A DNA stretch of 64,000 nt from Candidatus Enterousia sp. GTDB lineage: Bacteria > Pseudomonadota > Alphaproteobacteria > Rs-D84. The notes below the pieces were generated by a model that saw only the letters and a program-made list of their open reading frames with translations, had not been told where the DNA came from and did not search any database. The stretch spans positions 4,198 through 68,197 of the forward strand of contig JAZLCH010000011.1 of the NCBI GenBank assembly GCA_045614145.1, written 5' to 3'. Shown here piece by piece: positions 1,549-32,578 of the stretch (the stretch's first letter is position 1; each line of letters begins with the position of its first letter). Both the position numbers and the translations under genes were made by a program.

Positions 1549-1571
1549 TGGACGTGTTTTGTTGATTAAAT

Positions 1572-1876: not shown

Positions 1877-1923
1877 TGGCTCGAGCAACTGGACTCGAAC
1901 CAACGACATACGGATTAACAGTC
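1877..1923 (-). other. degenerate tRNA-Thr 3' half (T-arm plus part of anticodon arm); candidate distal att repeat of the island
   Basis: ggactcgaaccaacgacatacggatta closely matches ggacttgaaccaacgacctactgatta of the intact tRNA-Thr at 24541-24617, same orientation; acceptor-stem part diverged. Confidence 0.45.
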
Positions 1924-2370
1924 AAAAAGCGGCAGTTGTTGCAAAAACGCTGTGAGCCAATGTGAGTAAGGGATTGCGAGGTTTTGCAAAAATCGCTTTT
2001 GGGGTGCTTGGTGTAAGATTATGTATTTTTATAAAAAATATTTTGAAGCTCAAAATGCAAGCGGTTAAAAGTTGTAAAAAAACATTTTTTTCAAAAATTA
2101 AAAATTTATAAAAAAGCCAGAAATCTGCATATTATAAGGTCTCGCTGTACCCCTACCATAGAAATCAGTGTAGATTTCTATAAAATGCTTGTAAAAGGGC
2201 ATGAAAACATTACCATAAACCGTATGAAATAAGGCAGAAAAAATGACAGAACAATTGGAAAAAAGACCGGTAGTTTTTATCAAGAAAGGATGGTTCGTAT
2301 TTTGGTGCTTGGCATGTCCACCCATCGCCTTTTTGTATGTCCTTTTTGCAGATAGTGCGGAGGTGTAGTT

Positions 2371-2880
2371 ATGCAGGGGCAACAAGATATAGAATACACA
2401 AATATTATGTCATTAACAGATGCTGGGGTGGGCTTTTTGACAACTTGTGCTATTTTGCAACAAGAAATATCGCAAAAGAAAGATATGTTAAGAGAATTTA
2501 GATTACGAGGCGTTGAAAATACATGCATTTTACAAGCGGTTGAAATGTTCTTAAAAGTTTTCTTGCTCAAGGAATGTAAAAGATTAGACAAACTGCAAAC
2601 ACACAAGGTATATGATTTGTTTAAAAAGCTAAAGCCAGAAACCCAGCAAGAATTTGTTGGGTTGGTACATGGTGATGGTCGCCAGCATCTGGCTTCTTTA
2701 GAGCCTGTATTACAAGATAATAATGAGAAAATGATACGGCTGAGATATAACGATCTAAATAAAAGCGCAAGCCTAACGTTTTCTAATGGTGACGTGTTGC
2801 TGCATTTTGCCCAGATTATGTGTAATAAATTAGGCGAAAAAATAACGGTCGGTGGTCAAGAGTGGTCTTGGCGCAATTAA
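2371..2880 (+). CDS. hypothetical protein
   Basis: 169-aa ORF, no recognised motifs. Confidence 0.35.
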   Translation: MQGQQDIEYTNIMSLTDAGVGFLTTCAILQQEISQKKDMLREFRLRGVENTCILQAVEMFLKVFLLKECKRLDKLQTHKVYDLFKKLKPETQQEFVGLVHGDGRQHLASLEPVLQDNNEKMIRLRYNDLNKSASLTFSNGDVLLHFAQIMCNKLGEKITVGGQEWSWRN

Positions 2881-2945
2881 CATATTGTTCTACTTGACTT
2901 TATGACTTGTCTCGTTGTGTCTCTTTATAAAGGAAATATATAGAT

Positions 2946-3470
2946 ATGAAAAGGAATTTGTATAAACAAAATTTTGACCGTTTGGTCCAGAATTTGAGAA
3001 AATACTGCCTTGATTGTAATGCGCTTTACGGAAGTCAGAAGTATCCGAAATGTACATATTTTTCAAAAAAGTACAATTCTTACATTTCTGAACGAACAGT
3101 CTATGCAGGACGAATATCTGGCTTAGATTATAATAAAAAACAAATGGATTACTTTCGTAACGAAATTTCAGAGGAAGAATTTAAGAATTTTCATGATAAA
3201 TTTATTGAACAAAATCCATGGTTTCCTGAAATACGTCTTGATGGTAAATTTAGAGTATTCGTTTATTTAGAAAATAATAATTTTTGTTTGGATATAGAAG
3301 AAAATAAAGTAAGAACAAAATTAGTGGAAATACCGGTCCCAGAAAAAATTATTGGGGATCATAATGGTGATACAGCTTGGCGATTTGAACAGTGTATAAA
3401 TCGTCAAATAGATAAATATTTAAGGCAAAAACATACGAATATAGATATAATAAGAGCCTTGCCAGAATAG
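2946..3470 (+). CDS. hypothetical protein, Cys-containing N-terminus
   Basis: 174-aa ORF; CLDCN...C pattern near N-terminus. Confidence 0.35.
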   Translation: MKRNLYKQNFDRLVQNLRKYCLDCNALYGSQKYPKCTYFSKKYNSYISERTVYAGRISGLDYNKKQMDYFRNEISEEEFKNFHDKFIEQNPWFPEIRLDGKFRVFVYLENNNFCLDIEENKVRTKLVEIPVPEKIIGDHNGDTAWRFEQCINRQIDKYLRQKHTNIDIIRALPE

Positions 3471-3798
3471 AGAAAATGAACAAAAGCGTAAAACCAAGCA
3501 TCTGTCTCATTAGTGTTTAACAGTACACAGATAATAATCTCAGTTTTATTATCTGGTGTTTCCAAATCCCAAGCATCCCAATCAAAATAATTATTTTATG
3601 CAAATAATGCGATTTGAACTAATTTCTATTGGTATGTGTTGGGGTATTAACAGTTGTCATGCTAATATATCAGGCTAGGATGCACCACCAACAAAATGCT
3701 GGACCTGTTGGGGTAGGATGATGTTTTTTTATTGTTTGTTGTTGTTTTTTTGTAAGACTCTGATAACATTCTATTTAAGAAAATTAACGGAGGTTTAG

Positions 3799-5862
3799 AT
3801 GTACACACCAGCACCAATGAGAACATCAGTCTTAGACTTTATTCAGAAAAGCATGGGATGCCAGTTTGTTATTCCTGTATATCAGCGTAATTATACATGG
3901 AAGGCAAAGGAAGAAGTTGAAGTATTTTTAGATGACACAGAACGCCTTTTGTATAAAGAAAGTTCAGCGCATTTTTTTGGTATTGTAATATACCTAGGCC
4001 TGCCACGAGCATTTAATCATCATGAGTATCAAGTTGTGGATGGGCAACAGCGCTTAACAACGGTCTTTTTGACATTGTATGCACTAAAGCATATTGCTCA
4101 GCAAGATATCTATGATTCTACATTCCCCGATAAATTAGATGATATGTATTTGATAAATAAATACATAGAAGATGCTTCTATGAAATTAAAATTGAAGCCG
4201 CTGGTATCAGACGACAATGTATATGTAAAAATTGTTGAAGGAAATCTAAAAAACATAAGTCCAGAAGAACAAAATACAAATGTGTATAAAAATTATGTTG
4301 CGATTAAGAATAGAATAGGTAAATGGTTGTCAGATGATTATAGCCTAGAAGCTATTTTAGATGCGTTACAGAAATTATACATAGTTACAATTCCATTGTT
4401 AAATACAGATGATCCACAGCAAATATTTGAAAGTATCAATTCAAAGGGGGCTCCTTTAACTGCTGCGGATCTTATACGTAATTATTTGTTGATGGGCGAG
4501 GAAGATGTTGAACAAGAACGTTTGTATGAAAAATATTGGAAACCGTTAGAAGCAAAGGTTGAAGATTCTAAAGAACTGGAAGAGTTTTTCAGATTATTTT
4601 TAGCAAATCAAACATTCGATTTGCCAAAAAAGAAAGAAGTGTATAGTGCGTTTAAATTATGGTGCGATGATGAGGAAACAAGCAAACAGGAGATTTTTGA
4701 AAAGATAAATCAATATATGGGATATTTTTGGGCACTGTATCGGGAAGAAGATGCAATAAAAAATCTGCCAGCATTACGTTTCTTTAGACGTAATCCGTCT
4801 GTCTTGCCCGCACCATTCTTAATGGAGATGTATAAACTATGCGATGAACAGAAAATATCGCCAAGAACATTGGATGTAATTATTGATCTTGTAGATATTT
4901 ATTTGACCAGACGTGCACTTGCCGCAAGAGACACAAGTGAAATTACAAGATTTTTCCCAAGTTTCTTAAGGCATGTTATTTTGGCAACGGGCGACAAATA
5001 TGAAAATATCGTAGATAATGTAAAGTATTTCTTAATAAATGAAACAAGATTTACGGCAATGAAAATGCCAACAGATCAGGATTTAAGAGACTTTTTATCA
5101 CATAACGATGCTTATATTTTAAAATGTACCCGTTCTGTTCTGGATAAGCTTGAATTGGTTGATAATTCTGCCCAGGTTGATTTATCAAATTTAAGTGTAG
5201 AGCATTTGTTGCCACAGACTGCGACGGATTATTGGAAGAAATATGTTCCAGAGGATGAGTATGATCAGTATGTCGGTTTGATTGGCAATTTAACCTTGGC
5301 AACCAGTCTTAATAATAGCCAAATGGGCAATGACGAATGGGACAAAAAGAAACAAATACTAGAACAAACAAGACATATTAAATTAAATGAAGAACTGTTG
5401 TCTTATAATGAATGGACAAAAGCAGACATAGAAAACCGAACTCAACAAATGATTGATAGGATTATAAAACATTATCCATATCAAGAGTCTTCTTTGTCTG
5501 AGAATCCTTTGCCGCCAGAAGTTCAGCAACAATATGCTCAGGCACAAAGGGATGCACGTAAAGCTAGAAAGTTGTCACGGGTATCTCGCAGTCGATTTAA
5601 TTTTGACATGTTAGATATTCCTAATGGGGCAACTTTGGTTTTTATAAAGGATGAGTCTGAAACTTGTACAGTAATATCTGAAAATACCGTTTCATACAAG
5701 GGGGCAGAGTATCGTTTAAGTCCATTAGCAAAAGAGTTGCTGCATAAGCGTGGCATCAATTGGAATACCGTACAGGGGCCAGCTATGTTTAAATATAATG
5801 GCGAAGTTTTGTCAGAAAGGCGAGACAGAATAGAGAGAGATGAATTAGCTTGGTGGGAATGA
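3799..5862 (+). CDS. DUF262 (ParB-like, DGQQR motif) / DUF1524 (His-Me finger) protein, GmrSD-like type IV restriction family, with extra C-terminal domain
   Basis: VVDGQQRLTT motif near N-terminus; SVEHLLPQT His-Me finger motif; about 130 aa extra C-terminal region. Confidence 0.75.
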   Translation: MYTPAPMRTSVLDFIQKSMGCQFVIPVYQRNYTWKAKEEVEVFLDDTERLLYKESSAHFFGIVIYLGLPRAFNHHEYQVVDGQQRLTTVFLTLYALKHIAQQDIYDSTFPDKLDDMYLINKYIEDASMKLKLKPLVSDDNVYVKIVEGNLKNISPEEQNTNVYKNYVAIKNRIGKWLSDDYSLEAILDALQKLYIVTIPLLNTDDPQQIFESINSKGAPLTAADLIRNYLLMGEEDVEQERLYEKYWKPLEAKVEDSKELEEFFRLFLANQTFDLPKKKEVYSAFKLWCDDEETSKQEIFEKINQYMGYFWALYREEDAIKNLPALRFFRRNPSVLPAPFLMEMYKLCDEQKISPRTLDVIIDLVDIYLTRRALAARDTSEITRFFPSFLRHVILATGDKYENIVDNVKYFLINETRFTAMKMPTDQDLRDFLSHNDAYILKCTRSVLDKLELVDNSAQVDLSNLSVEHLLPQTATDYWKKYVPEDEYDQYVGLIGNLTLATSLNNSQMGNDEWDKKKQILEQTRHIKLNEELLSYNEWTKADIENRTQQMIDRIIKHYPYQESSLSENPLPPEVQQQYAQAQRDARKARKLSRVSRSRFNFDMLDIPNGATLVFIKDESETCTVISENTVSYKGAEYRLSPLAKELLHKRGINWNTVQGPAMFKYNGEVLSERRDRIERDELAWWE

Positions 5863-6045
5863 TGTTTTATATAAAACGGCCAAATAAGGCCGTTTTTTAT
5901 AAAGCTAATAATCAGGAGGCAAAAGTCTATTGTGTTTTCCTGTATATATCCGGATAAACTGTTCTAAAAGTCGCAATTTCCGCCTTAATAGAAATTTTAT
6001 GTAAAACTGCAGAAAATTTCTATTATGATAGAAATTTGTTCCTTT

Positions 6046-6084
6046 TCGTGTAAAATCGTGTAAAATCGTGTAAAAACACGGCAA
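6046..6084. repeat. 3 tandem copies of tcgtgtaaaa ending in palindrome cgtgtaaaaacacg
   Basis: direct reading; lies 40 bp upstream of NUDIX gene start. Confidence 0.5.
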
Positions 6085-6123
6085 TGGCCGCACAACGTTT
6101 TATACCAAGGTCTAAGGAAACAA

Positions 6124-6513
6124 ATGAAAGTAACTGCTGCGATTTTTAGAGATGGTGATAAAGTTCTGCTGATGCGACGGGCGGTTGACCAGCCATTGGC
6201 GGGCGAATGGGAATACCCCGGTGGTAAGTTTGAAGACGGCGAAGACGGCCCAACCTGCCTGCATAGGGAATTGGCTGAAGAACTCGGCATTGATGCGCAA
6301 ATCGGCGACCTGATTACAATCGCAAAACATACAACAGATTCAGGCAAGGTCATCGAACTGCACACATACGAAATCAAATCCTACACCGGCGAAATCCAAT
6401 TGCACGTCCACGATGATATGCACTGGGTGCGGATTCCGGACCTGTTATCCCACCCACAATTACCGGCAGATTTGATTGTGTCGAACGAACTTATGCAACT
6501 TAGTCTTGAATAA
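6124..6513 (+). CDS. NUDIX hydrolase (MutT-like)
   Basis: Nudix box GGKFEDGEDGPTCLHRELAEELGI. Confidence 0.8.
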   Translation: MKVTAAIFRDGDKVLLMRRAVDQPLAGEWEYPGGKFEDGEDGPTCLHRELAEELGIDAQIGDLITIAKHTTDSGKVIELHTYEIKSYTGEIQLHVHDDMHWVRIPDLLSHPQLPADLIVSNELMQLSLE

Positions 6514-7663
6514 TTTCTTTTATTTTTACCATCGTATTCACAAACGATTTGCGATTTGTGGTCATAATGTTGGTGTTCAATTTATAGAATTTTCTCATTT
6601 CGACATATGGGGTTTGGCCTGAAGTTAAGAATGGTTTCATGGATTCCAAGAAATATGACAGTTTGGCAGATTTGTTCGTACCTTTTAGTCGTTTGCTGAT
6701 TGCGGATGGGACAAACCATATGTTGTCGTCTGAAATTTCAAATAACGAAATAACTTTTGGAATGCCAACGCCAACATGCTTTGTTGCTGTCGTAACTGAC
6801 ATACCTATATTACGCAGGTCGTTAAAGAAATCGTAGACAGATGCTTCGGGTATATTAGAGTTTTTGGCAACAAATTTATTTACAAACTCTTCTTCGGAAA
6901 TGTAATCGGTTGTACGTTTGGCACTTGGTTCGGTATCAGCACCAGGGGCTGAGCAAACTATATTGTCATTTTTGATAGTAATAACAGCTCGTTCAATATG
7001 CTTGGTGTTCATGGTAAGCTGTGGAATAACCAAGAATTTGTCACCTAGTGCATATGTTTTTATTTCGCACAGCGCCAATTTATACTTCATGTCTATGGGG
7101 CTGTTTACAAATGCGGCTATGTTTTCAACTGTTGGGCGGATAGTGTCGCCAACAATCAGCATCAAAAATTCTGCATGACGAATGTGGCGATGTACGGCAT
7201 CTATGAAGGTTTCTTTGTCTGGCAAATCTTTGAATTTCTTTTTCATGTCTGTGTATAAATCAGATTTGCCATATAAGTCATTTAATGTTGAATAATCCCA
7301 ACCAGATGCACGGATATTGGCTGCATAGTCTAATATTTGTCCCAAAACCTCACGACAAGACTCAGGATTGCGATGCAGTTTTGTTTCTACTAACACCAAT
7401 CGACCCGATTTGCTGATAAATATTATATCAACATGTCCAGTTCCTTTTTTGCTGGTTTTCGTGGACGCTTCGCTACACACGTACATTAAATCCGCATAAT
7501 TTGAGTCAATGTCAGATACAGGTAGTATATCAGGACAGGTTGGCAAAAATTTTTGTAACCATTTTTCTGATTCAATTCGTTTAATTTCTGGGCTGGTTGT
7601 CTTACCATGCTTATCTACAAAGACTGGTGATTTTACAGCACGTTCTGACATGACTCTCTCCAT
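6500..7663 (-). CDS. PD-(D/E)xK nuclease-like hypothetical protein
   Basis: GHVDIIFISKSGRLVLVETKL (D...E.K) followed by QILDY (RecB/Cas4-like QxxxY); remaining 250 aa unassigned. Confidence 0.45.
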   Translation of the reverse strand: MERVMSERAVKSPVFVDKHGKTTSPEIKRIESEKWLQKFLPTCPDILPVSDIDSNYADLMYVCSEASTKTSKKGTGHVDIIFISKSGRLVLVETKLHRNPESCREVLGQILDYAANIRASGWDYSTLNDLYGKSDLYTDMKKKFKDLPDKETFIDAVHRHIRHAEFLMLIVGDTIRPTVENIAAFVNSPIDMKYKLALCEIKTYALGDKFLVIPQLTMNTKHIERAVITIKNDNIVCSAPGADTEPSAKRTTDYISEEEFVNKFVAKNSNIPEASVYDFFNDLRNIGMSVTTATKHVGVGIPKVISLFEISDDNIWFVPSAISKRLKGTNKSAKLSYFLESMKPFLTSGQTPYVEMRKFYKLNTNIMTTNRKSFVNTMVKIKEIIQD

Positions 7664-7846
7664 AGTTTTTATTACTTGTATTGTACATTAAAATGGGCAT
7701 GTTTTCAAGATGTCGCTTAATTCATTTTGTATAGAATGTGTCAACAGAAGATGCATTAATACATAGAAAAGTTATTGATTTTACATGTTTTCGCACTATT
7801 TATATAGTGTGAGCATGGTGCTTGCACGGAACCAAAAGGATGTGAA

Positions 7847-8044
7847 ATGAAGAAGGTAATAAGTTGTTTAGTTGTGATGTTGTCGCTGTGTGTATTTAAT
7901 GTACCTGCTCAGGCCAGTTATTATGGTGGCTCAGGGTATGTGCATGTGAACGGTTATACAAAAAGCAATGGCACATATGTGCAGTCGCATTACAGAACAC
8001 GCCCAGACGGTATCAAATCTAATAATTTGAGCTATCGTTTTTAA
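7847..8044 (+). CDS. small secreted protein
   Basis: 65 aa with signal peptide (CLVVMLSLCVFNVPAQA); strong terminator downstream. Confidence 0.4.
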   Translation: MKKVISCLVVMLSLCVFNVPAQASYYGGSGYVHVNGYTKSNGTYVQSHYRTRPDGIKSNNLSYRF

Positions 8045-8052
8045 TAAGAATT

Positions 8053-8078
8053 CCCGCCCCATGTGGGCGGGTTTCTTT
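8053..8078 (+). terminator. intrinsic terminator
   Basis: cccgccc-catgt-gggcggg hairpin plus T-run. Confidence 0.6.
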
Positions 8079-8132
8079 ATCCATACAATCCTTTTTGACA
8101 TCTGTTGAATTCGGTTTATACTGATTCCCGGA

Positions 8133-9395
8133 ATGGCGGAAAGGTTTTATCTTTGCATTGATTTAAAGAGTTTCTTTGCCTCGGTCGAAGCGGTTGACCG
8201 TGGGCTGGACCCATTTACAACAAACCTGGTCGTGGCGGACCCGTCACGGGGGCGGGGTTCGGTCTGTCTGGCGATAACACCGGCGATGAAGGCCCTGGGG
8301 ATTCGCAACCGTTGCCGGGTCTTTGAAATCCCGCGCGGGGTCGAATACATCACCGCAATGCCCCGCATGAAAAAGTATATGGAGGTATCCGCCCAGATTT
8401 ACGGGATTTATCTGCGCTATATTTCGCCCGAAGATATCCATGTCTATTCCATTGACGAATGCTTTATCGATATCACGCCTTACTTGAAAATGTATAAGCG
8501 GTCGCCCAAAGAAATGGCGATAATGCTGATGGATGCGGTACGGGCCGAGACGGGCATATGCGCCACCGCCGGCATTGGTACGAACCTGTTCTTGGCCAAG
8601 GTTGCGCTGGATATCACGGCCAAGAAAGTCCCCGACCATATCGGATGCCTGGATGTAGAATCGTTCCGGGAACACCTGTGGCACCATCGCCCGATAACAG
8701 ATATCTGGAACATCGGGGCGGGCATTGCACGGCGACTGGAAAAATACGGTGTTTATGACCTGTATGGGGTGACACAGATGCCGGCCGAAACACTATATCG
8801 TGAGTTTGGCACAAATGCAGAATACCTGATTGACCATGCGAACGGCATCGAGCCATGCACGATTGCCGATATTCACAATTATCAAGCGAAATCACATTCC
8901 CTGTCCAACGGCCAGATTCTGTTCGAAGACTATAACTTTGAAGATGCTATGATTGTGATGCAGGAAATGGTGGATAACCTGGTCTTGGAATTGGTGGAAA
9001 AGAACTTGGTGGCGGATGAGATATCGCTGACTGTGGGGTATTCACGTGATGTTCGTCGCCCAACCGGGGGCAGTCGTAAATTGCCAGCGCACACATCGTC
9101 TTACAAGACATTGGTGGCGGACTTTGTGCGACTGTATCAGGAAACGACCGATAAACGCACGCCGATACATAAATTGACGGTGGGGTTGGGGAACCTGGTT
9201 GATGCGGATACGGTGCATCTGCAACTGGATTTATTTGCGGATACAATGGCGGATGAACGTGAAAGCAAATTGCAACACGCATTGCTGGATATCAAGGGGA
9301 AATATGGCAAGAACGCTGTCCTGCGTGGCATAAATTATCACGAGAAGTCCACCGGTCGCAAACGTAATACTTTGATTGGGGGACACAATGGCTGA
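8133..9395 (+). CDS. Y-family DNA polymerase (UmuC/UvrX-like)
   Basis: CIDLKSFFASVEAV and SIDECFIDIT catalytic motifs. Confidence 0.8.
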   Translation: MAERFYLCIDLKSFFASVEAVDRGLDPFTTNLVVADPSRGRGSVCLAITPAMKALGIRNRCRVFEIPRGVEYITAMPRMKKYMEVSAQIYGIYLRYISPEDIHVYSIDECFIDITPYLKMYKRSPKEMAIMLMDAVRAETGICATAGIGTNLFLAKVALDITAKKVPDHIGCLDVESFREHLWHHRPITDIWNIGAGIARRLEKYGVYDLYGVTQMPAETLYREFGTNAEYLIDHANGIEPCTIADIHNYQAKSHSLSNGQILFEDYNFEDAMIVMQEMVDNLVLELVEKNLVADEISLTVGYSRDVRRPTGGSRKLPAHTSSYKTLVADFVRLYQETTDKRTPIHKLTVGLGNLVDADTVHLQLDLFADTMADERESKLQHALLDIKGKYGKNAVLRGINYHEKSTGRKRNTLIGGHNG

Positions 9396-9717
9396 TAATA
9401 CCGCACGTGCAAAACAGTTTATGCCGTTCGCAGCCCTGCGTGGGTACTATGCGATGGTGCTGGCTAAAAATCGGGTGGTTGAGCCCAGGCGGGAGTTGAT
9501 TGGTGACGCCGCAGAACGGCTGTCCCGGAAACTTGCGCTGGTAAAAAAAGGCATGATGATAACGGTGCGATTTTACCGGACCGATGCCTATGACACTATA
9601 ACGGGCCTGGTCACCCGCATAGACCCCGAATACCGATACATCACCATAGTCAAAACCAAAATCCCATTTGACGACATCTCTGACATGTCTTTGACAGAAA
9701 CGGCAGAGATTAGATAA
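9376..9717 (+). CDS. YolD-like accessory protein (UmuD functional analog); likely real start ATG at 9388
   Basis: about 110 aa, overlaps polymerase stop (ATGGCTGA); size and position typical of YolD partners of UvrX-type polymerases. Confidence 0.45.
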   Translation: MGDTMADNTARAKQFMPFAALRGYYAMVLAKNRVVEPRRELIGDAAERLSRKLALVKKGMMITVRFYRTDAYDTITGLVTRIDPEYRYITIVKTKIPFDDISDMSLTETAEIR

Positions 9718-9782
9718 AAAGTAACGTGTTTGTTGGTTATAGTGTTGCGGATTGATTAATGTCTGTTAATAACCAAAAGTAT

Positions 9783-15459: not shown

Positions 15460-15507
15460 GTTATATAGGAAAATATATCAAAACATACATGGGATTATCA
15501 ATATATT

Positions 15508-16296
15508 TTAGGGATGTTGATTCTCCAACTCCATTACAATCTCCAACAAATCGTCTGGGATATAGCTTTTGGCCTGGTCGATTAGTTCGGGTGGAGTGCC
15601 GTAATAGGCTTCGGCTACAGAGCCTGTGATTGCGGCAATTGTATCACTGTCGCCACCGATAGAGATTGCGTTGCGGATTGCATCTTCAAAATCCGTTGAT
15701 TCAAAGAAACATTGCAGGGCGGGCGGTACCGTTCCCTGGCACGATGAATCCCAATCATAGTATTCCTGTAAATCCGCCAAGCAGTCGCATGTCGGGTAAT
15801 AGTTGCTGCGGATGTATTCGGCTATGTCGTCTTTGCTGTGGCCAGTGCGTGCCATGAATATAGCAACGGCAACCGCTTCGGCACCCTTGATGCCTTCGAT
15901 ATGGTCGTGGGTTGGGGATGTGACCATGTATGACAGGCGTTTGACTTCTGCGATATTTTCGCCAAACCACCCAGCCGCAGATACTCGCATTGCCGCCCCG
16001 TTGCCCCAGCTGTTATACGGGCCCATAGTCGGGTCGTTCAGCCATTCCCAAAACATACCGCCATAGCCTTTGTTCGGATATGCCTTGCCAACAACACGCA
16101 TGGTGTCGGCTGTAATTTGGCTCAGGTCGCCACCTTGCTCACGCCATTGTTTGATTGCGCTGGCCACCGCTATGGACATACATGAATCATCCGTGATATA
16201 GCAACGGTCGGTCATAAAAGGGAAGTTCTTGGACCGGATATTTGCAAATTCATAAACAGACCCGGCAATGTCACCAATAATCGCACCAAACAGCAT
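15508..16296 (-). CDS. ADP-ribosylglycohydrolase (DraG/ARH family)
   Basis: MLFGAIIGDIAGSVYEF N-terminus and overall ARH-like sequence. Confidence 0.75.
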   Translation of the reverse strand: MLFGAIIGDIAGSVYEFANIRSKNFPFMTDRCYITDDSCMSIAVASAIKQWREQGGDLSQITADTMRVVGKAYPNKGYGGMFWEWLNDPTMGPYNSWGNGAAMRVSAAGWFGENIAEVKRLSYMVTSPTHDHIEGIKGAEAVAVAIFMARTGHSKDDIAEYIRSNYYPTCDCLADLQEYYDWDSSCQGTVPPALQCFFESTDFEDAIRNAISIGGDSDTIAAITGSVAEAYYGTPPELIDQAKSYIPDDLLEIVMELENQHP

Positions 16297-16367
16297 AGTT
16301 TTCTCCTTTCATATCACTTTAGGACATGTGGCCCAAATGTCAACCATAACACTTCAAAGAAACTGGT

Positions 16368-18620
16368 TTAGGCCACTAATATATCTTCTCTGATAATATC
16401 ATTCCAATCACGAGAGACGGCTTCTTGATTTTTAAATCTAAAAATGCTTTTGCTCAAGATTTCTTCACGAAATACTTGATTCTCGTACAACATATTAAAG
16501 TCTGATACACTCATAAAACAGATTTTTTCAAATAAATCGGTTTCCTTGGTGTTTATAATGTCATAAAGATTCTCTTCTTGGGCATTGGTGATATAGATAA
16601 ATATTGTAAGACTGGCAATTAAAATATCTATTTTAGAACGCCGTATTTCAAACATCGGTGGTGGGGCCGGCGTGTCCGTTTTTGGTTGTTTTGGGTTAGA
16701 TGTTGTTTTAGAGGTAGGCTTTTTTTCTTCCTTTTTAGGCTGTTTTGCTTCGTTTTTATATAACGGAATCTTATCAATGATAGCCAATAGCTTTTCAGAC
16801 ATTTTTAAAGAGATTTGCACGCTAAAGTTGTTTGAACGTTGAAAGTCGCGTTTGAGTTTTTCTGGGTCTAAATCCAGGGTAATATATCGCATCAGATCAT
16901 CGTATGTAACAGATTTCATATCCCCATCTAGGTATAAATATGTAGCGATAAGGTTTTCTTCTAAATTTTCTTTTGGAGATTTTTTTCGGTCCCCATTCTT
17001 TTCCGAGAAGCTTTTCATATTTTCAAAATAACGTTTTGGATTAAAATCAAAGACATAGCATTCGGATTTGCCAGCGTACGGACTCTGACAGCGGAATATA
17101 CTTTGAAAGAAGTCTTGGGCAGAGTGTTTGTCTTGCAACATTACAACAGAGTTTAGCTCTTTAATTGTAACACCTGTATTTAGCATGCCGCATGACAGGC
17201 AAATGATTTTATCGGTTTTTTTCTGTAGTTCTTTAAATTTCTCTAAAGACTTTACACTGCTTCCCACACCAGCACCTGTGGCATTAATTATTTCATAGTC
17301 CTTAAAGAATGTGTGATTCTTAAGAAAGGTTTCCATTGCGCAAACACTGGCTACATCTGGAAGAAACCACAAGGATTTTTTATTCTTTGATTTCATGTCA
17401 CCATAATAGGGCAATTTGACATTTGGACGTTTGGTTTTGGTTGTGCCGTCTGTTTTTCCCAGGTCAAAGGTTTCGCCACACATAAAGTCAATTATGTTTT
17501 TGACCCAGTCTTCTTGGGCAAATTGTTTTGTGTCTGAGTTTACATTAAATATTTTGTTTATATTGAATTCTTTTTCGCCAAATTCGTTAATTAAATCGCA
17601 TACGCCGTCAAAGGTATAAATTTTCATATCTGGCAGGTCACGATATGGATTTTCTTCTGCTGGCCCGGTCCAGCCATATTTGGCCTTTTGTTCGTCTCGA
17701 TATGTCCAGTTAAATATTTGCCAAGGCTTGTATTCTGAATCTTCCAGGATTTTAAATGGCGTTCCCGACAGTTCAAGCAAGCGCTTGTACTTTAATTTTT
17801 CTAATATTTTTTTCGTATTTGTAGCACGGGTTCCGTAGTGAGCTTCGTCAATTATCAATAAATCCCAATCGATATTGGCGATGTTCTTTATTTTATCTGT
17901 AAAGCCGGCAATATCACCTGGCTTAATATCGCTGGCTGCTGCTTCGTCATCTTCTGCGGCCAATTGTTTATTCGCCAATAACAATGGGATAGAAATAAAG
18001 ACGATATTTTTGTTGTTGGGGTCAAAAGAGGTCAGGTTATCTTTATTTATAAAGTTTATGCCACGAAAATCATGATGGCTCAGCAAATCTGTCTTCCATC
18101 CATCTTCCACAGCCACTTTCCATGTCAAAATTAATGCGTTTTTATATGCGGCCCGTTTAAACAGCTGGTATGCTGTAAAGGTCTTTCCAAAACGCATTTT
18201 GCAATTCCACAGAAATTTGTCGCTTTGTTTAAACTCATCCAAGGTGGCTTTGATGCAATCGTCTTGCTCTTTTCGTGGCGGAAAGTTTTCGGTGCGTTTT
18301 AAATCATATACTGTATTGGTTTCTAGTGCGACAATTATGGCTTTTATTATATTAACACCATTTTCTTGTCCAAAATCAAATGTTTCACGACCGTTTACAT
18401 CTGCAGGTCGTTTATATCCTAATTTTTCTAATTCGTTATGGATTAATGTATCAAGATTTTTGGTTTTATGTGGGATGTTAAAATTATGCTTCACAAACAA
18501 TGTTTCTGTGGCTTGCTTGCGATATGTATGCTTTATATATTCATCAACATTGCCTGCCGTTTCCCCAATAGATATGTAATTATTTTTAGAATCTTTTGTT
18601 TTTATTACATAAATATTCAT
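16368..18620 (-). CDS. N-terminal T5orf172 (GIY-YIG-like) domain fused to SF2 ResIII-type helicase
   Basis: NIYVIK...YISIGET...LIHNELEKLGYKR...GRETFDF T5orf172 pattern; RFGKT Walker A; LLIIDEAHYG motif II. Confidence 0.7.
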   Translation of the reverse strand: MNIYVIKTKDSKNNYISIGETAGNVDEYIKHTYRKQATETLFVKHNFNIPHKTKNLDTLIHNELEKLGYKRPADVNGRETFDFGQENGVNIIKAIIVALETNTVYDLKRTENFPPRKEQDDCIKATLDEFKQSDKFLWNCKMRFGKTFTAYQLFKRAAYKNALILTWKVAVEDGWKTDLLSHHDFRGINFINKDNLTSFDPNNKNIVFISIPLLLANKQLAAEDDEAAASDIKPGDIAGFTDKIKNIANIDWDLLIIDEAHYGTRATNTKKILEKLKYKRLLELSGTPFKILEDSEYKPWQIFNWTYRDEQKAKYGWTGPAEENPYRDLPDMKIYTFDGVCDLINEFGEKEFNINKIFNVNSDTKQFAQEDWVKNIIDFMCGETFDLGKTDGTTKTKRPNVKLPYYGDMKSKNKKSLWFLPDVASVCAMETFLKNHTFFKDYEIINATGAGVGSSVKSLEKFKELQKKTDKIICLSCGMLNTGVTIKELNSVVMLQDKHSAQDFFQSIFRCQSPYAGKSECYVFDFNPKRYFENMKSFSEKNGDRKKSPKENLEENLIATYLYLDGDMKSVTYDDLMRYITLDLDPEKLKRDFQRSNNFSVQISLKMSEKLLAIIDKIPLYKNEAKQPKKEEKKPTSKTTSNPKQPKTDTPAPPPMFEIRRSKIDILIASLTIFIYITNAQEENLYDIINTKETDLFEKICFMSVSDFNMLYENQVFREEILSKSIFRFKNQEAVSRDWNDIIREDILVA

Positions 18621-18630
18621 ATCTCAATCC

Positions 18631-19146
18631 TTATAATTCTAGCTCTGTCTGTACTGGTTCTGCATTTAACATCTGTTTTAGTGTTTCAAATTGTCCAGTT
18701 TTCCAATCTTTAAATTTCAAATCGTCACCATTGCAGTCCAACATGGTCAATGTGTTGCCACAAATAATGTTGGTTTCCAAGATTTCGACTATGTTTTTAA
18801 TGTTTCGCCAACAAACACATTCTTTTTTTTGAATTTCGGCAAGTACAATACCCAACATTCGACATCTGCATTCTTCGACATTGTCTGGCATAATATCCAC
18901 ACCGTATATTGATTGCAGGGCACGAACACAGTCATTAATGTCTTTACAAAGCCTTAATTTTCGGCTTAGGATCTCAATAATAAAGTTTCCGTTTCCACAT
19001 GCGGGTTCAAGAAATGTTGCATCAATGTTCTTCCATATTTCTTTGGGAATCAGATTACACATATTGCGCACAATCTTGCGTGGGGTAAAAACTTCCCCCA
19101 GGTCCCGAACACGTGTACAAGATTTAATCAAGGAACACTTACTCAT
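18631..19146 (-). CDS. truncated N6-adenine methyltransferase paralog (motifs X and I only, no NPPY)
   Basis: GEVFTPRKIVRNMCNLIP and canonical EPACGNGNFI; start overlaps upstream MTase stop (ATGA). Confidence 0.5.
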   Translation of the reverse strand: MSKCSLIKSCTRVRDLGEVFTPRKIVRNMCNLIPKEIWKNIDATFLEPACGNGNFIIEILSRKLRLCKDINDCVRALQSIYGVDIMPDNVEECRCRMLGIVLAEIQKKECVCWRNIKNIVEILETNIICGNTLTMLDCNGDDLKFKDWKTGQFETLKQMLNAEPVQTELEL

Positions 19147-20731
19147 CGTCTGTATCTATGTTATCTGAAAGCACAGTATCTTTATTCATTGGTTTTACCA
19201 TAGATTCAATAAAGGCAATTTCATTTTCAGAAAGGTTATATTTTTTATACAATTTCTCATCTGTCCATTCTTCATTGAAGTTTTGCATTGGTATCAGATG
19301 AAAGACAGATTTTGTTGCGTTCATAGTGCCTTTGCCAAAATACAACAAGACCTTAAAAAAATTGGTTTGCATGTAAGATAGGCAATTGTCTCGATTTTGT
19401 TTTGTTGGAAAGCCGCCTATTAATAAAAAGGTTGCTGTGCAAATTTCATTTGGCCCTGCTAAAATCACTTCTGGATAATTTATAGCATTTGTAGAATATG
19501 CTTTGCTGAAAAATATCTTGTATTTATCTACGTTTTCTTCGTTACAAGTCACAACATTCTTGTTCACGTATCCTTGAACTCTTCTCGCTCCACCTTTTAC
19601 TCCGGTCACACCATGAATCTTTACACTATTTTCAAAAGGTTTATCGGATAGATTTGCTCCTGTTAATCTAGTTGGCTCATTAAAAAGCCATGTCTCTATA
19701 CCAAATGGCTTGATGGACGATACTAACTCTGAAAATTTGTGGGCATCGTTAAGTTTGTCTAGCATAGATAATATTCGACCATCTCTTATAACAAATTTAA
19801 AATAGTCGTTTTTAAGAAACTGTGAAAAATGTGTTTGTACGCCAGTATTTGATGTGTAGTGGTATTGTGCCTTTCCATTATAATCTTTGTCCCATAGAAA
19901 GTAGCATACTCCACCATCAATGTGTACTCCAGAAAAACACATGGTCTCATCTTCAAAATCATGCATTTCTTTGATTCTGCTATCAACAATCATTTTTTGT
20001 CTAAAAAGTTCTAAACCTCGTCCACCCATCATCCATCGCGAAGGTATAATAAAGCTCAGATATTTTGGAGCCAAGCTAATCGCTTGTTCAATAAACTTGT
20101 TGTATATAGGCGCAGCTCCATCAGCTGAACCCCCTCTACCATCAGTTAATTGATATGGAGGGTTTCCTATGATTACATCAAATTTCATATTTTCTACCCC
20201 CTTTTTTGCAAAAAAATCAGCCACGGCTTGCGTGTCTTTTATGAAATGGAAACATTGTTTTTCTATCTGTGCGCCCGATTTATCCGTGACATATTCTCCC
20301 AAAGATTCATCAAAGAATATATTGTCAATGTCAGCAAATGCAGGATTACAGGTATAGAGCGTACGCTTTGTTACACGATAGCCACGATAGGATACGGCAA
20401 TACCAAAAATACGTTCTTTCAGTATTTGGTGTAATATACCTTCCTGTCGCATTGTAAAGTCATATACAGCATTCTTGTCATCTGGTAATTGTTTGAATTT
20501 TGCTCGCAGTATTCTTACGACCGCTTCTCGTAAAAATATTCCGTCTTTACATGCCGGACATAATATTTTGGCATTATCATCCAGCCATACGGATTCCGGA
20601 ATCAAGTCCAGCATGGAATTAACAACCTTCAGTGGGGTTGGCGTTTCTGTATTAACCATACACTGCAGCTGTTCTAATATGTCAACACGTTTTGTCATTG
20701 TTGGGCCCTTGGCATCGTGGCCCCATTTCAT
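19139..20731 (-). CDS. gamma-class N6-adenine DNA methyltransferase, Eco57I-like, with TRD
   Basis: TPTPLKVVNSMLDLIP; degenerate motif I CPACKDGIFL; catalytic IIGNPPYQ. Confidence 0.75.
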   Translation of the reverse strand: MKWGHDAKGPTMTKRVDILEQLQCMVNTETPTPLKVVNSMLDLIPESVWLDDNAKILCPACKDGIFLREAVVRILRAKFKQLPDDKNAVYDFTMRQEGILHQILKERIFGIAVSYRGYRVTKRTLYTCNPAFADIDNIFFDESLGEYVTDKSGAQIEKQCFHFIKDTQAVADFFAKKGVENMKFDVIIGNPPYQLTDGRGGSADGAAPIYNKFIEQAISLAPKYLSFIIPSRWMMGGRGLELFRQKMIVDSRIKEMHDFEDETMCFSGVHIDGGVCYFLWDKDYNGKAQYHYTSNTGVQTHFSQFLKNDYFKFVIRDGRILSMLDKLNDAHKFSELVSSIKPFGIETWLFNEPTRLTGANLSDKPFENSVKIHGVTGVKGGARRVQGYVNKNVVTCNEENVDKYKIFFSKAYSTNAINYPEVILAGPNEICTATFLLIGGFPTKQNRDNCLSYMQTNFFKVLLYFGKGTMNATKSVFHLIPMQNFNEEWTDEKLYKKYNLSENEIAFIESMVKPMNKDTVLSDNIDTDDE

Positions 20732-20860
20732 AAAGAAAATACGGACATTATTTTTTTGTGTTCTTCATCAATAATTAAACTAAAATCATAATAAATTTAT
20801 TGCTAAAAACGGGCTTTTATGTTATGAATAAAAACATTAAGATAAATGGTCCGTTTTACA

Positions 20861-21472
20861 TTATTTATCAATCATTATATTGTTATCTGATATATATTTA
20901 TTAAGGGTTGGAATGCTCACTTTTAGCATTCTTGCCAATTTAACCTTGGTGGTTCTATTAAGCATTTCTTGTTTTATACGCTCGTCTGATCCATCTAGCT
21001 TGTGTTTACTATTGCGGGCCCCTGGTGTTCGTCCCAAACGTTTCCCTTGTGCCCGTCTGTGCGCCAGGGCTTCTTTAGTACGCTGGGAAATCATATCTCT
21101 CTCGATTTCTGCGGCCATACCAAAGGCAAAGGCCAGAACCTTAGATTGAAGGCTCTCGTCTAATGAGTAGCCGTCCTTTACTGAATAAACACGTACATTT
21201 TTATCCAGCAGGCGTTTCAGAATATCAAACAGCATAAACAACCTGCGACCAAATCGTGATAGTTCAGACACTATAATTACATCCCCTGGTTGAATTTGCT
21301 TTAATAATTTACCTAGTTTTCGTTTCTTGGGCTCGACAGTTCCCGATATGCCGTCGTCTATGATGTATTTATCGATAGCCAGGCCCAGTGCGCGGGCTTT
21401 GGCTTCGACGCCCATGCGCTGGTTAGCAGTGTCCTGGTCGTCTGTGCTGACACGTAAGTATGCGTATATCAT
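20861..21472 (-). CDS. serine recombinase (resolvase/invertase family)
   Basis: MIYAYLRVSTDDQD catalytic Ser motif; C-terminal HTH. Confidence 0.85.
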   Translation of the reverse strand: MIYAYLRVSTDDQDTANQRMGVEAKARALGLAIDKYIIDDGISGTVEPKKRKLGKLLKQIQPGDVIIVSELSRFGRRLFMLFDILKRLLDKNVRVYSVKDGYSLDESLQSKVLAFAFGMAAEIERDMISQRTKEALAHRRAQGKRLGRTPGARNSKHKLDGSDERIKQEMLNRTTKVKLARMLKVSIPTLNKYISDNNIMIDK

Positions 21473-21487
21473 TGTTTCTCCTTTGAT

Positions 21488-22519
21488 TCACTCAACCTTT
21501 ATCCCGGCGATTAGTTCGCGTTGGCGGGATGGGGAGATGTTGCCGTAATTGCATCGGGTGGTGCCGATACTGCTGTGGCCAAAGTCTTGTTGCAGGGCGA
21601 CTATGCGGTCGTCGTGCGTTATGTTTTCAATGTGTCTGGCACGGGTGCGGCGGACACTGTGAATGCTTAGTGGGGCTAGTCCATTTGCCACACATGCGCC
21701 GTTAAATATCTGATTGGCGGTGCATACGGATATTGGCTGGGCCTTTACAATGCGTTCAAAGATGTTCTGTTGGAACGGATTGGTTGCAATCTTGGGAAAA
21801 AGCGGGCCTGATTTATCAAAACCATATTCATTGACCAGCATGTCCCGCCAATCCAGTACAAATTGCCGCAGGTCTGGGATGTTAAGCAAGGTTGCCTGGC
21901 GTACACGACAGAACTTTACATTCTTGATTTTTCGTGGGTTTATGTCCAGAAAGTATACACCAACCAACGGCTCCTGCATAATCGTATCAATTCGAAAGTT
22001 ACACAGTTCGCTTACACGTGGGCTGGTCAGTATTACCAGCGCAACCAGTGCCCGATTTCGCAGGTCTGTCACTGTTTGCGCTGGCATAGTACGAACGGCA
22101 TGCAACAGTTGTGAATATTCGTGATGCGGTTTATATCCGGATGCGTTGGCCCGATTAATCTCGTTCCGGGTCAGGGTCAGATAGTCGGCATCGTTTCGGC
22201 GAATGCGTCGGCCAAATGGCTCGTCCGCCAGCCAGCGAATGAACTTTTGCGTTTCGGATGTTATCCGGTGCATATAGCTGGGGGATACAGACTGTTGCCG
22301 CAGATTGGCCAAGAATACCTTGGCCATGTCTGGGGTATAGCGATCCAGGTCTTGAAAGTCCGTTAAAACCTCGAACGCACGCAGATATTTGCGCAGGGCC
22401 AGCAGGGTCTTGTTATCGGCCAGCTTGGTCCGGCGGACGTGTTCCAGGTATTTTTTAACGATACGCTCGTTACCGGGATTGTATTTGCGATGGTTAGATT
22501 CGTTCAGAATTGATTGCAT
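21488..22519 (-). CDS. tyrosine recombinase / phage-type integrase
   Basis: C-terminal HSVRRT...GHSSIGTT...Y catalytic pattern. Confidence 0.8.
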   Translation of the reverse strand: MQSILNESNHRKYNPGNERIVKKYLEHVRRTKLADNKTLLALRKYLRAFEVLTDFQDLDRYTPDMAKVFLANLRQQSVSPSYMHRITSETQKFIRWLADEPFGRRIRRNDADYLTLTRNEINRANASGYKPHHEYSQLLHAVRTMPAQTVTDLRNRALVALVILTSPRVSELCNFRIDTIMQEPLVGVYFLDINPRKIKNVKFCRVRQATLLNIPDLRQFVLDWRDMLVNEYGFDKSGPLFPKIATNPFQQNIFERIVKAQPISVCTANQIFNGACVANGLAPLSIHSVRRTRARHIENITHDDRIVALQQDFGHSSIGTTRCNYGNISPSRQRELIAGIKVE

Positions 22520-22766
22520 CGTATACCTCCTTGGCTGTCAGATGTACTGTTTCCATCTCAACTGGTGTCATGGTTTGTGTTTTGGCCACATTCTGATACA
22601 TGCCGGCAATGTATCGGGCCGTGCTGTCGACATCACTGCAATATTCCTTTAACCCCAGCAGGGTCAGATAGTCATTACCAAATACATAGTTAATCTGGAA
22701 CAGGGACGGATGTGGCCCCTTGCTATATTCAATTTTCGTTATCATTTGTATCTCCTTTTTCTTCAA
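22494..22766 (-). CDS. hypothetical protein
   Basis: 90-aa ORF between integrase and HTH gene. Confidence 0.3.
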   Translation of the reverse strand: MKKKEIQMITKIEYSKGPHPSLFQINYVFGNDYLTLLGLKEYCSDVDSTARYIAGMYQNVAKTQTMTPVEMETVHLTAKEVYDAINSERI

Positions 22767-23259
22767 ATTTCATAAATTCCTGGTTGCAGGATGTTGCACC
22801 ATTGTCCCCGTCATCGACTCTGCAGTTTAGGCTTGAATCCAGGGAATGGGGTATACACGGTGATTCAGTTAAGCGGAATTCGCGTTTCAGTCGTGAAATA
22901 TCCGCAATTTTGTAGACTTTGTGCATCTTGCAACCGCAAACCGGGCATATGCCACACATGTTGGGCAGGGTCGGGTGTTCGCGTGAAAACCATATAACCT
23001 TGCCCTTGGGGATGCGGGCCTGGCGACAGTGCAGACAATAGAACTGGTGGAATTCGATTGGGCAACGGTTTTTGTCGTTTTCATTTAACAGAAAATCTAT
23101 CAAATTCGTCCCACGAATAAGTGTTGGTCGTTTGTCGTCAATTGTGGTCAAGCCGTTTGCAATCATCTGGCGCACGGTACGTTCAGAACGATTAATCATC
23201 TGGCATACTTCGGGTATCGAATATGTACCCATATAGGAAATATTTTGTGTACTATACAT
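22729..23259 (-). CDS. HTH DNA-binding protein with C-terminal Cys4 zinc-ribbon
   Basis: IPEVCQMINRSERTVRQMIANG HTH; CLHC...CGICPVC. Confidence 0.45.
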   Translation of the reverse strand: MYSTQNISYMGTYSIPEVCQMINRSERTVRQMIANGLTTIDDKRPTLIRGTNLIDFLLNENDKNRCPIEFHQFYCLHCRQARIPKGKVIWFSREHPTLPNMCGICPVCGCKMHKVYKIADISRLKREFRLTESPCIPHSLDSSLNCRVDDGDNGATSCNQEFMKFEEKGDTNDNEN

Positions 23260-23470
23260 TTTCGCCCCCTTCGTCTAACTTGTTAATCAGCTGGCGTTCA
23301 ATCCACGTATCCAGATCGGATTTGCGGTACCGAATACGGTTCCCCCAGCGAATAAACGGTAAAGTGTTTTTGCCACAATGGCGCCAACTGTTTAACGTCC
23401 CGACAGTCGTCCCCAGATATTGGGCCGCCTGACGTTGGTTAAGCAACTTAAATGAATTTTCTTCATTCAT
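23252..23470 (-). CDS. AlpA/Xis-family excisionase-like transcriptional regulator
   Basis: QAAQYLGTTVGTLNSWRHCG...RIRYRKSDLDTWI. Confidence 0.7.
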   Translation of the reverse strand: MNEENSFKLLNQRQAAQYLGTTVGTLNSWRHCGKNTLPFIRWGNRIRYRKSDLDTWIERQLINKLDEGGENV

Positions 23471-23549
23471 AACAATACTCCTTTTTTGTTGTTTTTTGTT
23501 ATGCTTGAAGACTAAGAGGGATTTATCGAAATTTACAGAAATGAGAATT

Positions 23550-24431
23550 CTAGCTAGCTAAAAATTTGCGTTTTGGCGCAGAAATCAGCACTCCTTCAAG
23601 GGTTTTGGAAGTTAGGGGTGATTTCTTGCGTTTGTGCCGTTTGCAGTACTCTTCACGGACTATTTTTATCGTTTCAGAGATATTTTGTGGCAGGGTATCT
23701 TTCTGCTGAATACCCATATCATAGATGATTTTTTCATATCTTTCACGAATAGCATTTTTTGCATCGGCGGTTTTGTCGGCACCTTTTTTATATTTCTGAC
23801 GGTTGCTGAATGCGTTTAATCGATAATTAAGTGACTTGGCACGGGTTAGTGAATTAAAAAACATAGCCACATTATAGGCGACGTTGTTACTTGTATTTTC
23901 CAGATTTTTAAGTATAGATTCAAACAGTAATAACAGGTCTTTGAACAGGATACCCGCAATACATTTATTGGCAAATCCAGGTTCTTGCTTCTTTTCGGTC
24001 ATAATATCCTGGGGGTGTACCTTTGCGAATTCTTTGTCTCCATTTTGTGCCAGCTTCAGCATTTTTCTTTCAATTTTAAGCCAGTTTGATTTCATCTTGC
24101 TGCCTGTAAAGATTTGAACCGTGTCATTTTTATTGTCAATAAAGCAATAATTGGCAGATAGCGAGAATAATTTTTCTATCCTGTTAATTACATCGGGCAT
24201 ATCGTCATTGGCGATAACAGATACATAGGTTGGGATAATTTCTGCAATATGCAGTATTTGTAAAATATGGTCGGCATAGGTCCCGCGAAAATAAAGGGAG
24301 ACCAGGGCCAAATTTTGGTCGTCTTCGACCGGTGTTTCCAGTGGTAACAAATAAGGTAAAAATTTAACTAAATCTTGCATGGTGATGGATCCTTTTGAAA
24401 AAAATAGTAATAAATATTTATCGATATTCAA
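23550..24431 (-). CDS. hypothetical protein (island-borne)
   Basis: 293-aa ORF adjacent to tRNA-Thr. Confidence 0.4.
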   Translation of the reverse strand: MNIDKYLLLFFSKGSITMQDLVKFLPYLLPLETPVEDDQNLALVSLYFRGTYADHILQILHIAEIIPTYVSVIANDDMPDVINRIEKLFSLSANYCFIDNKNDTVQIFTGSKMKSNWLKIERKMLKLAQNGDKEFAKVHPQDIMTEKKQEPGFANKCIAGILFKDLLLLFESILKNLENTSNNVAYNVAMFFNSLTRAKSLNYRLNAFSNRQKYKKGADKTADAKNAIRERYEKIIYDMGIQQKDTLPQNISETIKIVREEYCKRHKRKKSPLTSKTLEGVLISAPKRKFLAS

Positions 24432-24540
24432 GGAATATTCGCCATGTCGGCCGGTAGCAAACGAGTAGCAAAAAATTTTTTGTCAATTTTTGTAGATTGT
24501 GCAAAGTAATAAAAAATCCCCTTGAATCAAGGGGTTATTC

Positions 24541-24617
24541 TGGTGCCGGTTGTCGGACTTGAACCAACGACCTACTGATTACAAATCAGCCGCTCTACCA
24601 GCTGAGCTAAACCGGCA
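24541..24617 (-). tRNA. tRNA-Thr (anticodon TGT)
   Basis: cloverleaf: acceptor GCCGGTT/AACCGGC, anticodon loop TTTGTAA, T-loop TTCAAGT, CCA end. Confidence 0.9.
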
Positions 24618-32571: not shown

Positions 32572-32578
32572 GTAATAA

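Follow-up and report, generated by a model that had tools for sequence, protein, structure and literature searches.

Genomic islands integrated in tRNA genes (tDNA) are reportedly the subject of a 2002 study by Williams, which is listed among the references of the 2015 paper by Hudson, Lau and Williams. Under the Islander definition of tDNA-integrated islands, a tyrosine integrase splits the tRNA gene, the island restores it, and a displaced 3′ fragment marks the far end of the island (Hudson, Lau & Williams, 2015; PMC4383910). Displaced tDNA fragments, crossover sites at the anticodon loop and at the T/acceptor junction, and tandem arrays have all been described for such islands (PMC4383910). 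Here, we analyse an interval of about 22.7 kb (positions 1877-24617) in a 64 kb contig stretch, hereafter the window, from an uncultured gut alphaproteobacterium of the Candidatus Enterousia lineage. The interval runs from an orphan tRNA fragment at 1877-1923 to an intact tRNA-Thr(TGT) gene, and the first-pass annotation had taken it for one island at tRNA-Thr, with the fragment as a degenerate tRNA-Thr copy at its distal boundary. We consider it likely that the interval is not a single island but a mosaic in which at least two tRNA-linked integrative systems, unrelated to each other, are combined with shuffled defence cargo, because related genomes hold its sub-blocks separately and because its two ends are non-cognate, with an intact tRNA-Thr at one and an orphan tRNA-Asn fragment at the other.

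The locus shares the general scheme of the Islander islands, including tandem arrays and the placement of crossovers either at the anticodon loop (the 47-nt tRNA-Asn fragment) or at the T/acceptor junction (tRNA-Thr repeats of at least 16 nt in relatives). Unlike those islands, it combines a tRNA gene and a fragment that do not belong together: the tRNA-Asn part has neither an integrase nor an intact tRNA-Asn in the window, and the tRNA-Thr part has an integrase and no displaced fragment. The asn-tRNA islands of Enterobacteriaceae, such as the Yersinia high-pathogenicity island and ICEKp, carry siderophore genes and are associated with short repeats of ~17 nt at the tRNA 3′ end. They resemble the present case in their tRNA-Asn target, P4-type integrases and repeated use of the site, and differ from it in that the repeat here is ~45-47 nt long, starting from the anticodon loop, and the cargo is defensive. 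Defence-gene hotspots in integrase-bearing mobile elements are known from P2/P4 and from hotspot 5 of the SXT integrative and conjugative element, where, as here, a conserved integration backbone accompanies a fixed slot with swapped anti-phage cassettes. The present locus departs from those hotspots in that no phage, satellite or conjugation genes were found in it, in its host, an uncultured gut alphaproteobacterium, and in a backbone of which three proteins (u293, u90 and a 176-aa helix-turn-helix (HTH) protein) have no family assignment.

The analysis used ARAGORN, Rfam, Pfam, NCBIfam, PADLOC, PHROGs and tblastn, together with a terminator scan and a shuffled-sequence control. Comparison loci are denoted by L-numbers.

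The orphan tRNA fragment

On the minus strand, positions 1877-1923 read GACTGTTAATCCGTATGTCGTTGGTTCGAGTCCAGTTGCTCGAGCCA and comprise, in order, an anticodon loop with GTT, the variable region, the T-arm, the 3′ strand of the acceptor stem and CCA. The fragment thus spans anticodon loop to CCA; it retains a CTGTTAA anticodon loop and has its own terminator at 1843-1869. ARAGORN called no tRNA at 1877-1923. Since an Rfam E-value scan of 1-30000 did not flag it either, its identity was established against genuine tRNA-Asn genes. Intact tRNA-Asn(GTT) genes that share this 3′ half were retrieved from metagenomes with the fragment's central 25-mer as query. One of the loci used for comparison, L088, is tied to the lineage of the window because it also carries, at 25.1-25.5 kb, relatives of a small open reading frame (ORF) family found in the window. 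In ungapped alignment the fragment agrees with the lineage tRNA-Asn(GTT) genes (L088, L090, L093 and L095) at 44 of 47 positions (94%), against 32 of 47 (68%) for the tRNA-Thr of the window. When the lineage tRNA-Asn 47-mer was searched against the window, its sole site was 1877-1923, with 3 mismatches, and 100 shuffles gave 0 hits. Among viral contigs, the tRNA-Asn pattern matched only one phage tRNA cluster.

That the whole interval might be one 22.7 kb tRNA-Thr island, with 1877-1923 as an old, mutated direct repeat, is a reading that the geometry invites: the tRNA is intact, an integrase is its neighbour, and 22.6 kb away, in direct orientation, lies a tRNA-like fragment. It is nevertheless very improbable. 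The fragment sides with tRNA-Asn down to its GTT anticodon loop, in L112 and L117 this fragment and the genes beside it mark the boundary of tRNA-Asn islands, the true tRNA-Thr repeats of relatives measure 16-80 nt from the T-stem onwards rather than 47 nt, and the integrase element has its far junction at 16346 in three independent genomes. Over the T-arm the fragment does agree with tRNA-Thr at 24 of 27 positions; however, lineage tRNA-Asn and window tRNA-Thr themselves share 35 of the 47 positions of this stretch, which argues that the resemblance is generic tRNA similarity only. It is because the fragment derives from another tRNA, and not because it is old, that it resembles tRNA-Thr so little. 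Hence, of the earlier description, the tRNA derivation and the orientation stand, and the assignment to tRNA-Thr does not: the fragment is the 3′-terminal 47 nt of tRNA-Asn(GTT), an attachment-site scar, and not the distal repeat of a tRNA-Thr island.

Orphan tRNA-Asn fragments are also present in L003, L092, L096, L110, L112 and L120, with an inner edge within a few bases of that in the window. In L003 the fragment shares the HipBA side with the window and has a different inner side; in L096 the outer side is different and the inner side is related to window 2240-2362; and L110 has three Asn fragments in tandem. Around an edge in the anticodon loop that stays fixed, each flank varies independently of the other; such a pattern is characteristic of site-specific recombination at the anticodon-loop position of tDNA islands (PMC4383910). 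The fragment therefore represents the 3′ end (attR side) displaced by a tRNA-Asn island, with 1924-3615 as the distal end of that island. This conclusion comes close to a fallback of the first-pass annotation, in which the fragment had been brought in from elsewhere.

The region 1924-3615, on the plus strand, is assigned to what we call the u169 family of tRNA-Asn islands by homology to L112, L117/L118 and L096, and encodes u169 (2371-2880) and u174 (2946-3470), neither of which has a match in Pfam, NCBIfam or PHROGs. In L112 (NCBI assembly GCA_948741625.1), a terminator, an orphan tRNA-Asn fragment (~45 nt), u169, u174, a MunI restriction-modification system and an intact tRNA-Asn follow one another in the same orientation as in the window, and the intact tRNA-Asn lies 3.9 kb from the orphan fragment. 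Window 2154-3615 is 88.9% identical to this locus. L117/L118 repeat the layout with DpnII cargo instead, in an island of 5.3 kb. The u169-family islands of L112 and L117 thus measure about 4-5 kb (3.9 and 5.3) and end at an intact tRNA-Asn, and their u169 proteins are 93-94% identical to that of the window (93% in L112). The u169 and u174 genes are the conserved far end of this island family. ARAGORN found no intact tRNA-Asn in the 64 kb; the only tRNA genes called there are tRNA-Thr, tRNA-Ser and tRNA-Leu.

Next to the fragment on the left lies a segment (1662-1876, minus strand) that in other genomes follows the 3′ end of tRNA-Asn, as indicated by homology to L120 and by the call of the intrinsic terminator at 1843-1869. 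Window 1662-1883 is 93.2% identical to L120 17996-18217, where the segment follows an 8-nt tRNA-Asn 3′ remnant and forms the near end of a u169-family island. At ~1667 this segment is joined to the remnant of a P4-type integrase gene and to a HipBA toxin-antitoxin system. The remnant (1569-1667, minus strand) consists of the last 33 codons of a truncated gene and is 88% identical by tblastn to residues 386-418 of the L001 integrase; homology to L001 ends at 1667. HipBA (78-1548, plus strand) comprises HipB (78-299) and HipA (292-1548), identified by the Pfam families HTH_3 and HipA_C/Couple_hipA. Window 1-1667 shows 98.9% nucleotide identity to L001/L002, where it belongs to a different island beside an intact P4-type integrase. 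Because the HipBA block sits there in another island with the integrase intact, the left edge of the window is still mobile DNA, and the accessory DNA has its true outer limit outside the window. The integrase remnant beside HipBA was considered as the fragment's own integrase and rejected, as, relative to the fragment, it faces the opposite way to the P4-type integrases beside the Asn fragments in L092 and L110.

The comparison with L120 also bears on a different account of this junction, in which the u169 end, the 47-nt core and the terminator segment are the intact attachment site (attP) of a single u169-family element that entered by a route other than its own attachment site, rather than the junction of two tandem tRNA-Asn islands. 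One 8.4 kb island of L120 has the terminator segment (window 1662-1883) at one end and the u169 end at the other, so that the juxtaposition of the two in the window equals the circular junction of that island. The same order would, though, also arise where two islands of one family meet in tandem, and L110 provides a direct example of Asn fragments in tandem array. Furthermore, the terminator segment is cut after ~210 nt by the block of HipBA and integrase remnant. We regard an intact attP as unlikely, though the data are compatible with both readings. L120 itself is an Asn-scarred island for which no intact tRNA-Asn was called within the 20.5 kb fetched. Only 8 nt of the tRNA-Asn 3′ end (CCGAGCCA, L120 18211-18218) precede its terminator segment, and a McrBC system adjoins; this remnant may represent a second, 3′-terminal crossover site, or a plain deletion.

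The element adjoining tRNA-Thr

The intact tRNA-Thr(TGT) of the first-pass annotation is present at 24541-24616 on the minus strand (ARAGORN; Rfam 72.8 bits), followed by a terminator at 24518-24534. In about 30 related genomes this gene lies upstream of a U32 peptidase gene, and in many of them its 3′ side carries insertions of varied size and content. The interval is accessory DNA derived from mobile elements, and is absent or different in the relatives compared.

Adjoining tRNA-Thr is an element of ~8.2 kb (~16347-24506) that recurs at the same site in L006 and L107. Its far junction at ~16346 recurs in three independent genomes, and is placed there because the leader of an ADP-ribosylglycohydrolase (ARH) gene meets different sequence at this point in L107 and in L007/L097. 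The integrase element thus ends at ~16346 and not at 1877, contrary to the proposal that the fragment closes a single 22.7 kb island. L006 is 98.3% identical to window 16846-19291 and 94.7% to 19887-23443, with 77.6% in the core U32 region. L107 is 95.4% identical to window 21470-24670 and 94.6% to the ARH gene with its leader (15520-16346), with 79.5% in the core region. L097/L098 match ARH and a superfamily 1 (SF1) helicase gene (12875-16344) at 96.8%, with 79.2% in the core region. Islands are thus common, at 94-98% identity, to genomes whose core genes are only ~78-80% identical.

The tRNA-proximal part of the element is an integration module (21470-24506, minus strand) that shares 95.4% identity with L107 and 94.7% with L006, in both of which it occupies the same tRNA-Thr/U32 site. 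It encodes, all on the minus strand, a 343-aa tyrosine recombinase (integrase; 21488-22519, Pfam/NCBIfam), the 90-aa u90 (22494-22766), the 176-aa HTH protein (22729-23259; a weak HTH_17 match below the Pfam cutoff), a 72-aa excisionase-family protein (23252-23470, HTH_17) and the 293-aa u293 (23550-24431). Neither u90 nor u293 has a match in Pfam, NCBIfam or PHROGs, and u293 has none in PADLOC. The integrase, two excisionase-like HTH genes and resolvase that had been annotated on the 3′ side of tRNA-Thr are therefore all there. The catalytic set of the integrase (R168, K202, H287, R290, H315 and Y325) is invariant in 15 homologues. Between u293 and the tRNA terminator, sequence comparison reveals paired repeats, GTAGCA-N5-GTAGCA with 11-bp spacing (24454-24470, minus strand). 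Such pairs lie ~45 nt beyond the tRNA terminator in all members of the integrase family and differ in sequence by subfamily, being TGCTAC (GTAGCA) in tRNA-Thr-linked members and TGCGAT in L110/L111 (L110 7925-7945), whose homologues of the module are 70% identical and lie after a tRNA-Asn core. The paired repeats are plausible protein-binding arm sites, with the integrase or the excisionase as candidate ligands. A 30%-identical integrase occupies the same position in L034.

True tRNA-Thr direct repeats occur in L005, L007, L011 and L097. They start with CCGAC, in the 3′ strand of the T-stem, extend over 16-80 nt, and bound islands that are small and integrase-less; L005 shares the tRNA-proximal arm of the window with its GTAGCA repeats. 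In the window, a second tRNA-Thr 3′ end was searched for over the whole 64 kb with a 25-mer and a 16-mer, allowing up to 3 mismatches, and none was found. Generic repeat searches of 16300-24620 and of 1-16400 returned only short, chance-level matches, and comparison of the two element junctions with the near-empty site of L009 revealed no shared core. Because its far end has no tRNA-Thr repeat, the integrase element has probably lost its far attachment site and is probably immobile, fixed in place. The supposed single island had earlier been called probably old or immobilised; for the integrase element, immobilisation fits this result. A left boundary was also sought from the conserved left neighbours that tRNA-Thr has in distant relatives (a CvpA-like gene and others), but these are absent from the window and lie elsewhere in L006, and no boundary was obtained.

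Between the stop codon of the integrase gene and the ARH leader, 16347-21469 (minus strand) is an exchangeable cargo slot of the element. In the window and in L006, where the same cargo is 98% identical, it holds a split type IIG-like restriction-modification system and an invertase. By Pfam, PADLOC and NCBIfam, the minus-strand genes are a T5orf172-ResIII protein (16368-18620), methyltransferase pieces (18631-19146 and 19139-20731) and a 203-aa serine recombinase (20861-21472), for which the Mpi invertase family is the best NCBIfam match, at 241 bits and thus below the NCBIfam cutoff of 272. L107 11050-14955 carries other restriction-modification cargo between the same junctions (16346 and 21470), namely an 834-aa methyltransferase and a 414-aa protein. 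In L007/L097 the slot is empty (L007 651-660), and the ARH leader (up to window 16344) runs into 50 nt that remain of the integrase 3′ end.

Further features of the slot concern the methyltransferase, which is split into ORFs of 171 aa and 530 aa with an 8-nt overlap, and which is split in the same way in L006. No alignment with L006 is obtained over window 19291-19887, and protein identity is only 63%; this divergence suggests target-recognition swapping beside the Mpi-like invertase. A search for long inverted repeats near the serine recombinase (16300-24620) found none. Beyond ARH, L107 15784-21032 contains MotA/ExbB-like, OmpA-like and SNF2-helicase genes, a Zorya-like set, such that the same hotspot holds yet another defence system in that genome.

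Assembly of the interval

The blocks of the interval move independently in relatives: the integrase element in L006/L107, ARH with the SF1 helicase in L097, ARH to UmuC in L099, and u169/u174 in L112. Material found in tRNA-Thr context reaches left to at least 12875 (L097), and material found in tRNA-Asn context reaches right to 3615 (L112). Because the two kinds of material stop there, the join between them is placed between 3615 and 12875.

At the Asn end, a tyrosine integrase would have recombined the attachment site of an island with the anticodon loop of tRNA-Asn, the island providing a replacement 3′ half and the original 47 nt being displaced to its far end. At the Thr end, to judge from relatives, the T-stem/acceptor junction of tRNA-Thr would be the crossover site of such elements, with a direct repeat of 16-80 nt as the result. 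The Asn-type and Thr-type ends would then have been joined secondarily, likely by recombination among defence modules common to both loci, or alternatively by import of a pre-assembled mosaic. A broader model, which we put forward only tentatively, is that in these gut alphaproteobacteria small islands, many of them integrase-less, form families at the tRNA-Asn and tRNA-Thr loci, are moved in trans by few integrases and swap defence cassettes at fixed junctions such as the slot between integrase stop codon and ARH leader, the window being a hybrid produced by recombination between the loci. Were this so, it would be a case of chromosomal rearrangement driven by homology between defence islands.

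An assembly chimera, in which an Asn-linked and a Thr-linked island were falsely joined via a defence module common to two loci or strains, would produce the same arrangement. Blocks of the ARH-SF1-YolD-UmuC type are indeed found in many contigs and contexts, with identities of 93-97%, related contigs (L007, L009 and L097) often end within them, and no independent contig covers window 3.6-12.9 kb. Against this, the local junctions that can be checked are seen independently, from HipBA to the fragment in L003, from the fragment to u169 in L112, L117 and L120, and from ARH to the integrase element in L107, and L120 is likewise Asn-scarred with no intact tRNA-Asn called in 20.5 kb. We consider a chimera quite unlikely, and prefer a genuine mosaic. 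Several points weigh against that preference. The joining event itself was not seen, and the fusion is bracketed only to 3615-12875. The comparison loci are mostly metagenome contigs or metagenome-assembled genomes, in which assembly errors are possible. Exact-protein look-ups of the U32 peptidase, the 370-aa flank protein, the integrase and GmrSD returned no record, nor was a same-species genome found; among the metagenome-assembled loci, the host U32 peptidase has 95% protein identity to L005 and 91% to L006. On the integrase that produced the tRNA-Asn scar the evidence is divided: P4-type integrases flank the Asn scars in L092 and L110, but the u169-family islands observed carry no integrase. 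Finally, the near-empty site of L009 may itself be a deletion derivative.

The interval is an ordinary tRNA-linked defence-island mosaic and involves no new mechanism. The main value of the analysis is one of correction: a tRNA-like fragment in direct orientation is not sufficient to define the limits of an island, since one must also establish which tRNA the fragment comes from. It also shows how a defence island is built in an uncultured Candidatus Enterousia, with several tRNA-targeting systems and with restriction-modification, PsyrTA, GmrSD and a Mokosh-like helicase swapped at fixed junctions, and should be useful for island-calling tools and for the cataloguing of defence cargo.

Defence cargo, composition and further observations

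The middle of the interval carries further cargo. On the plus strand are a GmrSD type IV restriction enzyme (3799-5862; Pfam, PADLOC), a NUDIX hydrolase (6124-6513; Pfam), a UmuC-like Y-family polymerase (8133-9395; Pfam IMS/IMS_C) and a YolD-like protein (9376-9717; Pfam YolD). On the minus strand are the 387-aa PDC-S11-like u387 (6500-7663), for which a weak PADLOC PDC-S11 match is the only one, the DprA-like PsyrA (9783-10760; PADLOC 4.3e-56 and Pfam), PsyrT, a DEAD helicase with a phosphoribosyltransferase (10735-12768; PADLOC 2.9e-220 and Pfam), the SF1 helicase with DUF2726 (12943-15459; Pfam, with partial Mokosh-like matches) and ARH (15508-16296, with a leader to 16346; Pfam).

As in PsyrTA (RqlHI), both components are present, adjacent and co-oriented, and their PADLOC matches are strong; PsyrTA is, however, only one cargo item here and leaves the rest of the region unexplained. 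It is missing between YolD and the SF1 gene in L099-L106, where these genes are adjacent, which makes it a discrete 3.2 kb block in the window. Window 8056-9677 (UmuC/YolD) is 93.7% identical to L099-L105, in which it directly abuts the SF1 helicase gene, and the ARH-SF1-YolD-UmuC series of L099-L106 has 93.7% identity in a different context. ARH and SF1 adjoin tRNA-Thr in L097/L098, and ARH occurs alone in L107. At least 10 contigs, in several contexts, carry ARH and the SF1/DUF2726 helicase at 93-97% identity as a fixed pair of genes 48 nt apart; ARH has no match in PADLOC, and the pair could be an undescribed two-gene defence system.

A compositional shift, proposed earlier as a check, is indeed present. 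The interval is AT-shifted, with an overall GC (guanine plus cytosine) content of 38.8% against 43.5% in the right flank of the window, and it is patchy, its segments ranging from 34 to 50%: 35.9% in 1924-8055, 50.3% in UmuC/YolD, 34.2% in PsyrTA, 41.2% in SF1/ARH, 36.8% in the restriction-modification slot and 44.0% in the integration module.

Between tRNA-Thr and the U32 peptidase gene there is a second variable gap, filled by a multi-copy family of small ORFs (~105-140 aa, with no family match) at window 24720-25462, L006 9027-9893 and L007 3483-4104. The same family is found beside tRNA-Asn in L088 (362-1337). At tRNA-Ser, the 3′ end of the gene and the sequence just beyond it, ~230 nt in all, are duplicated in L005 (16178-19690, compared with window 32482-32790), with ~2 kb of extra DNA there. 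Window 32482-32790 thus appears to be an empty tRNA-Ser site, and tRNA-Ser may be a further island target in this lineage.

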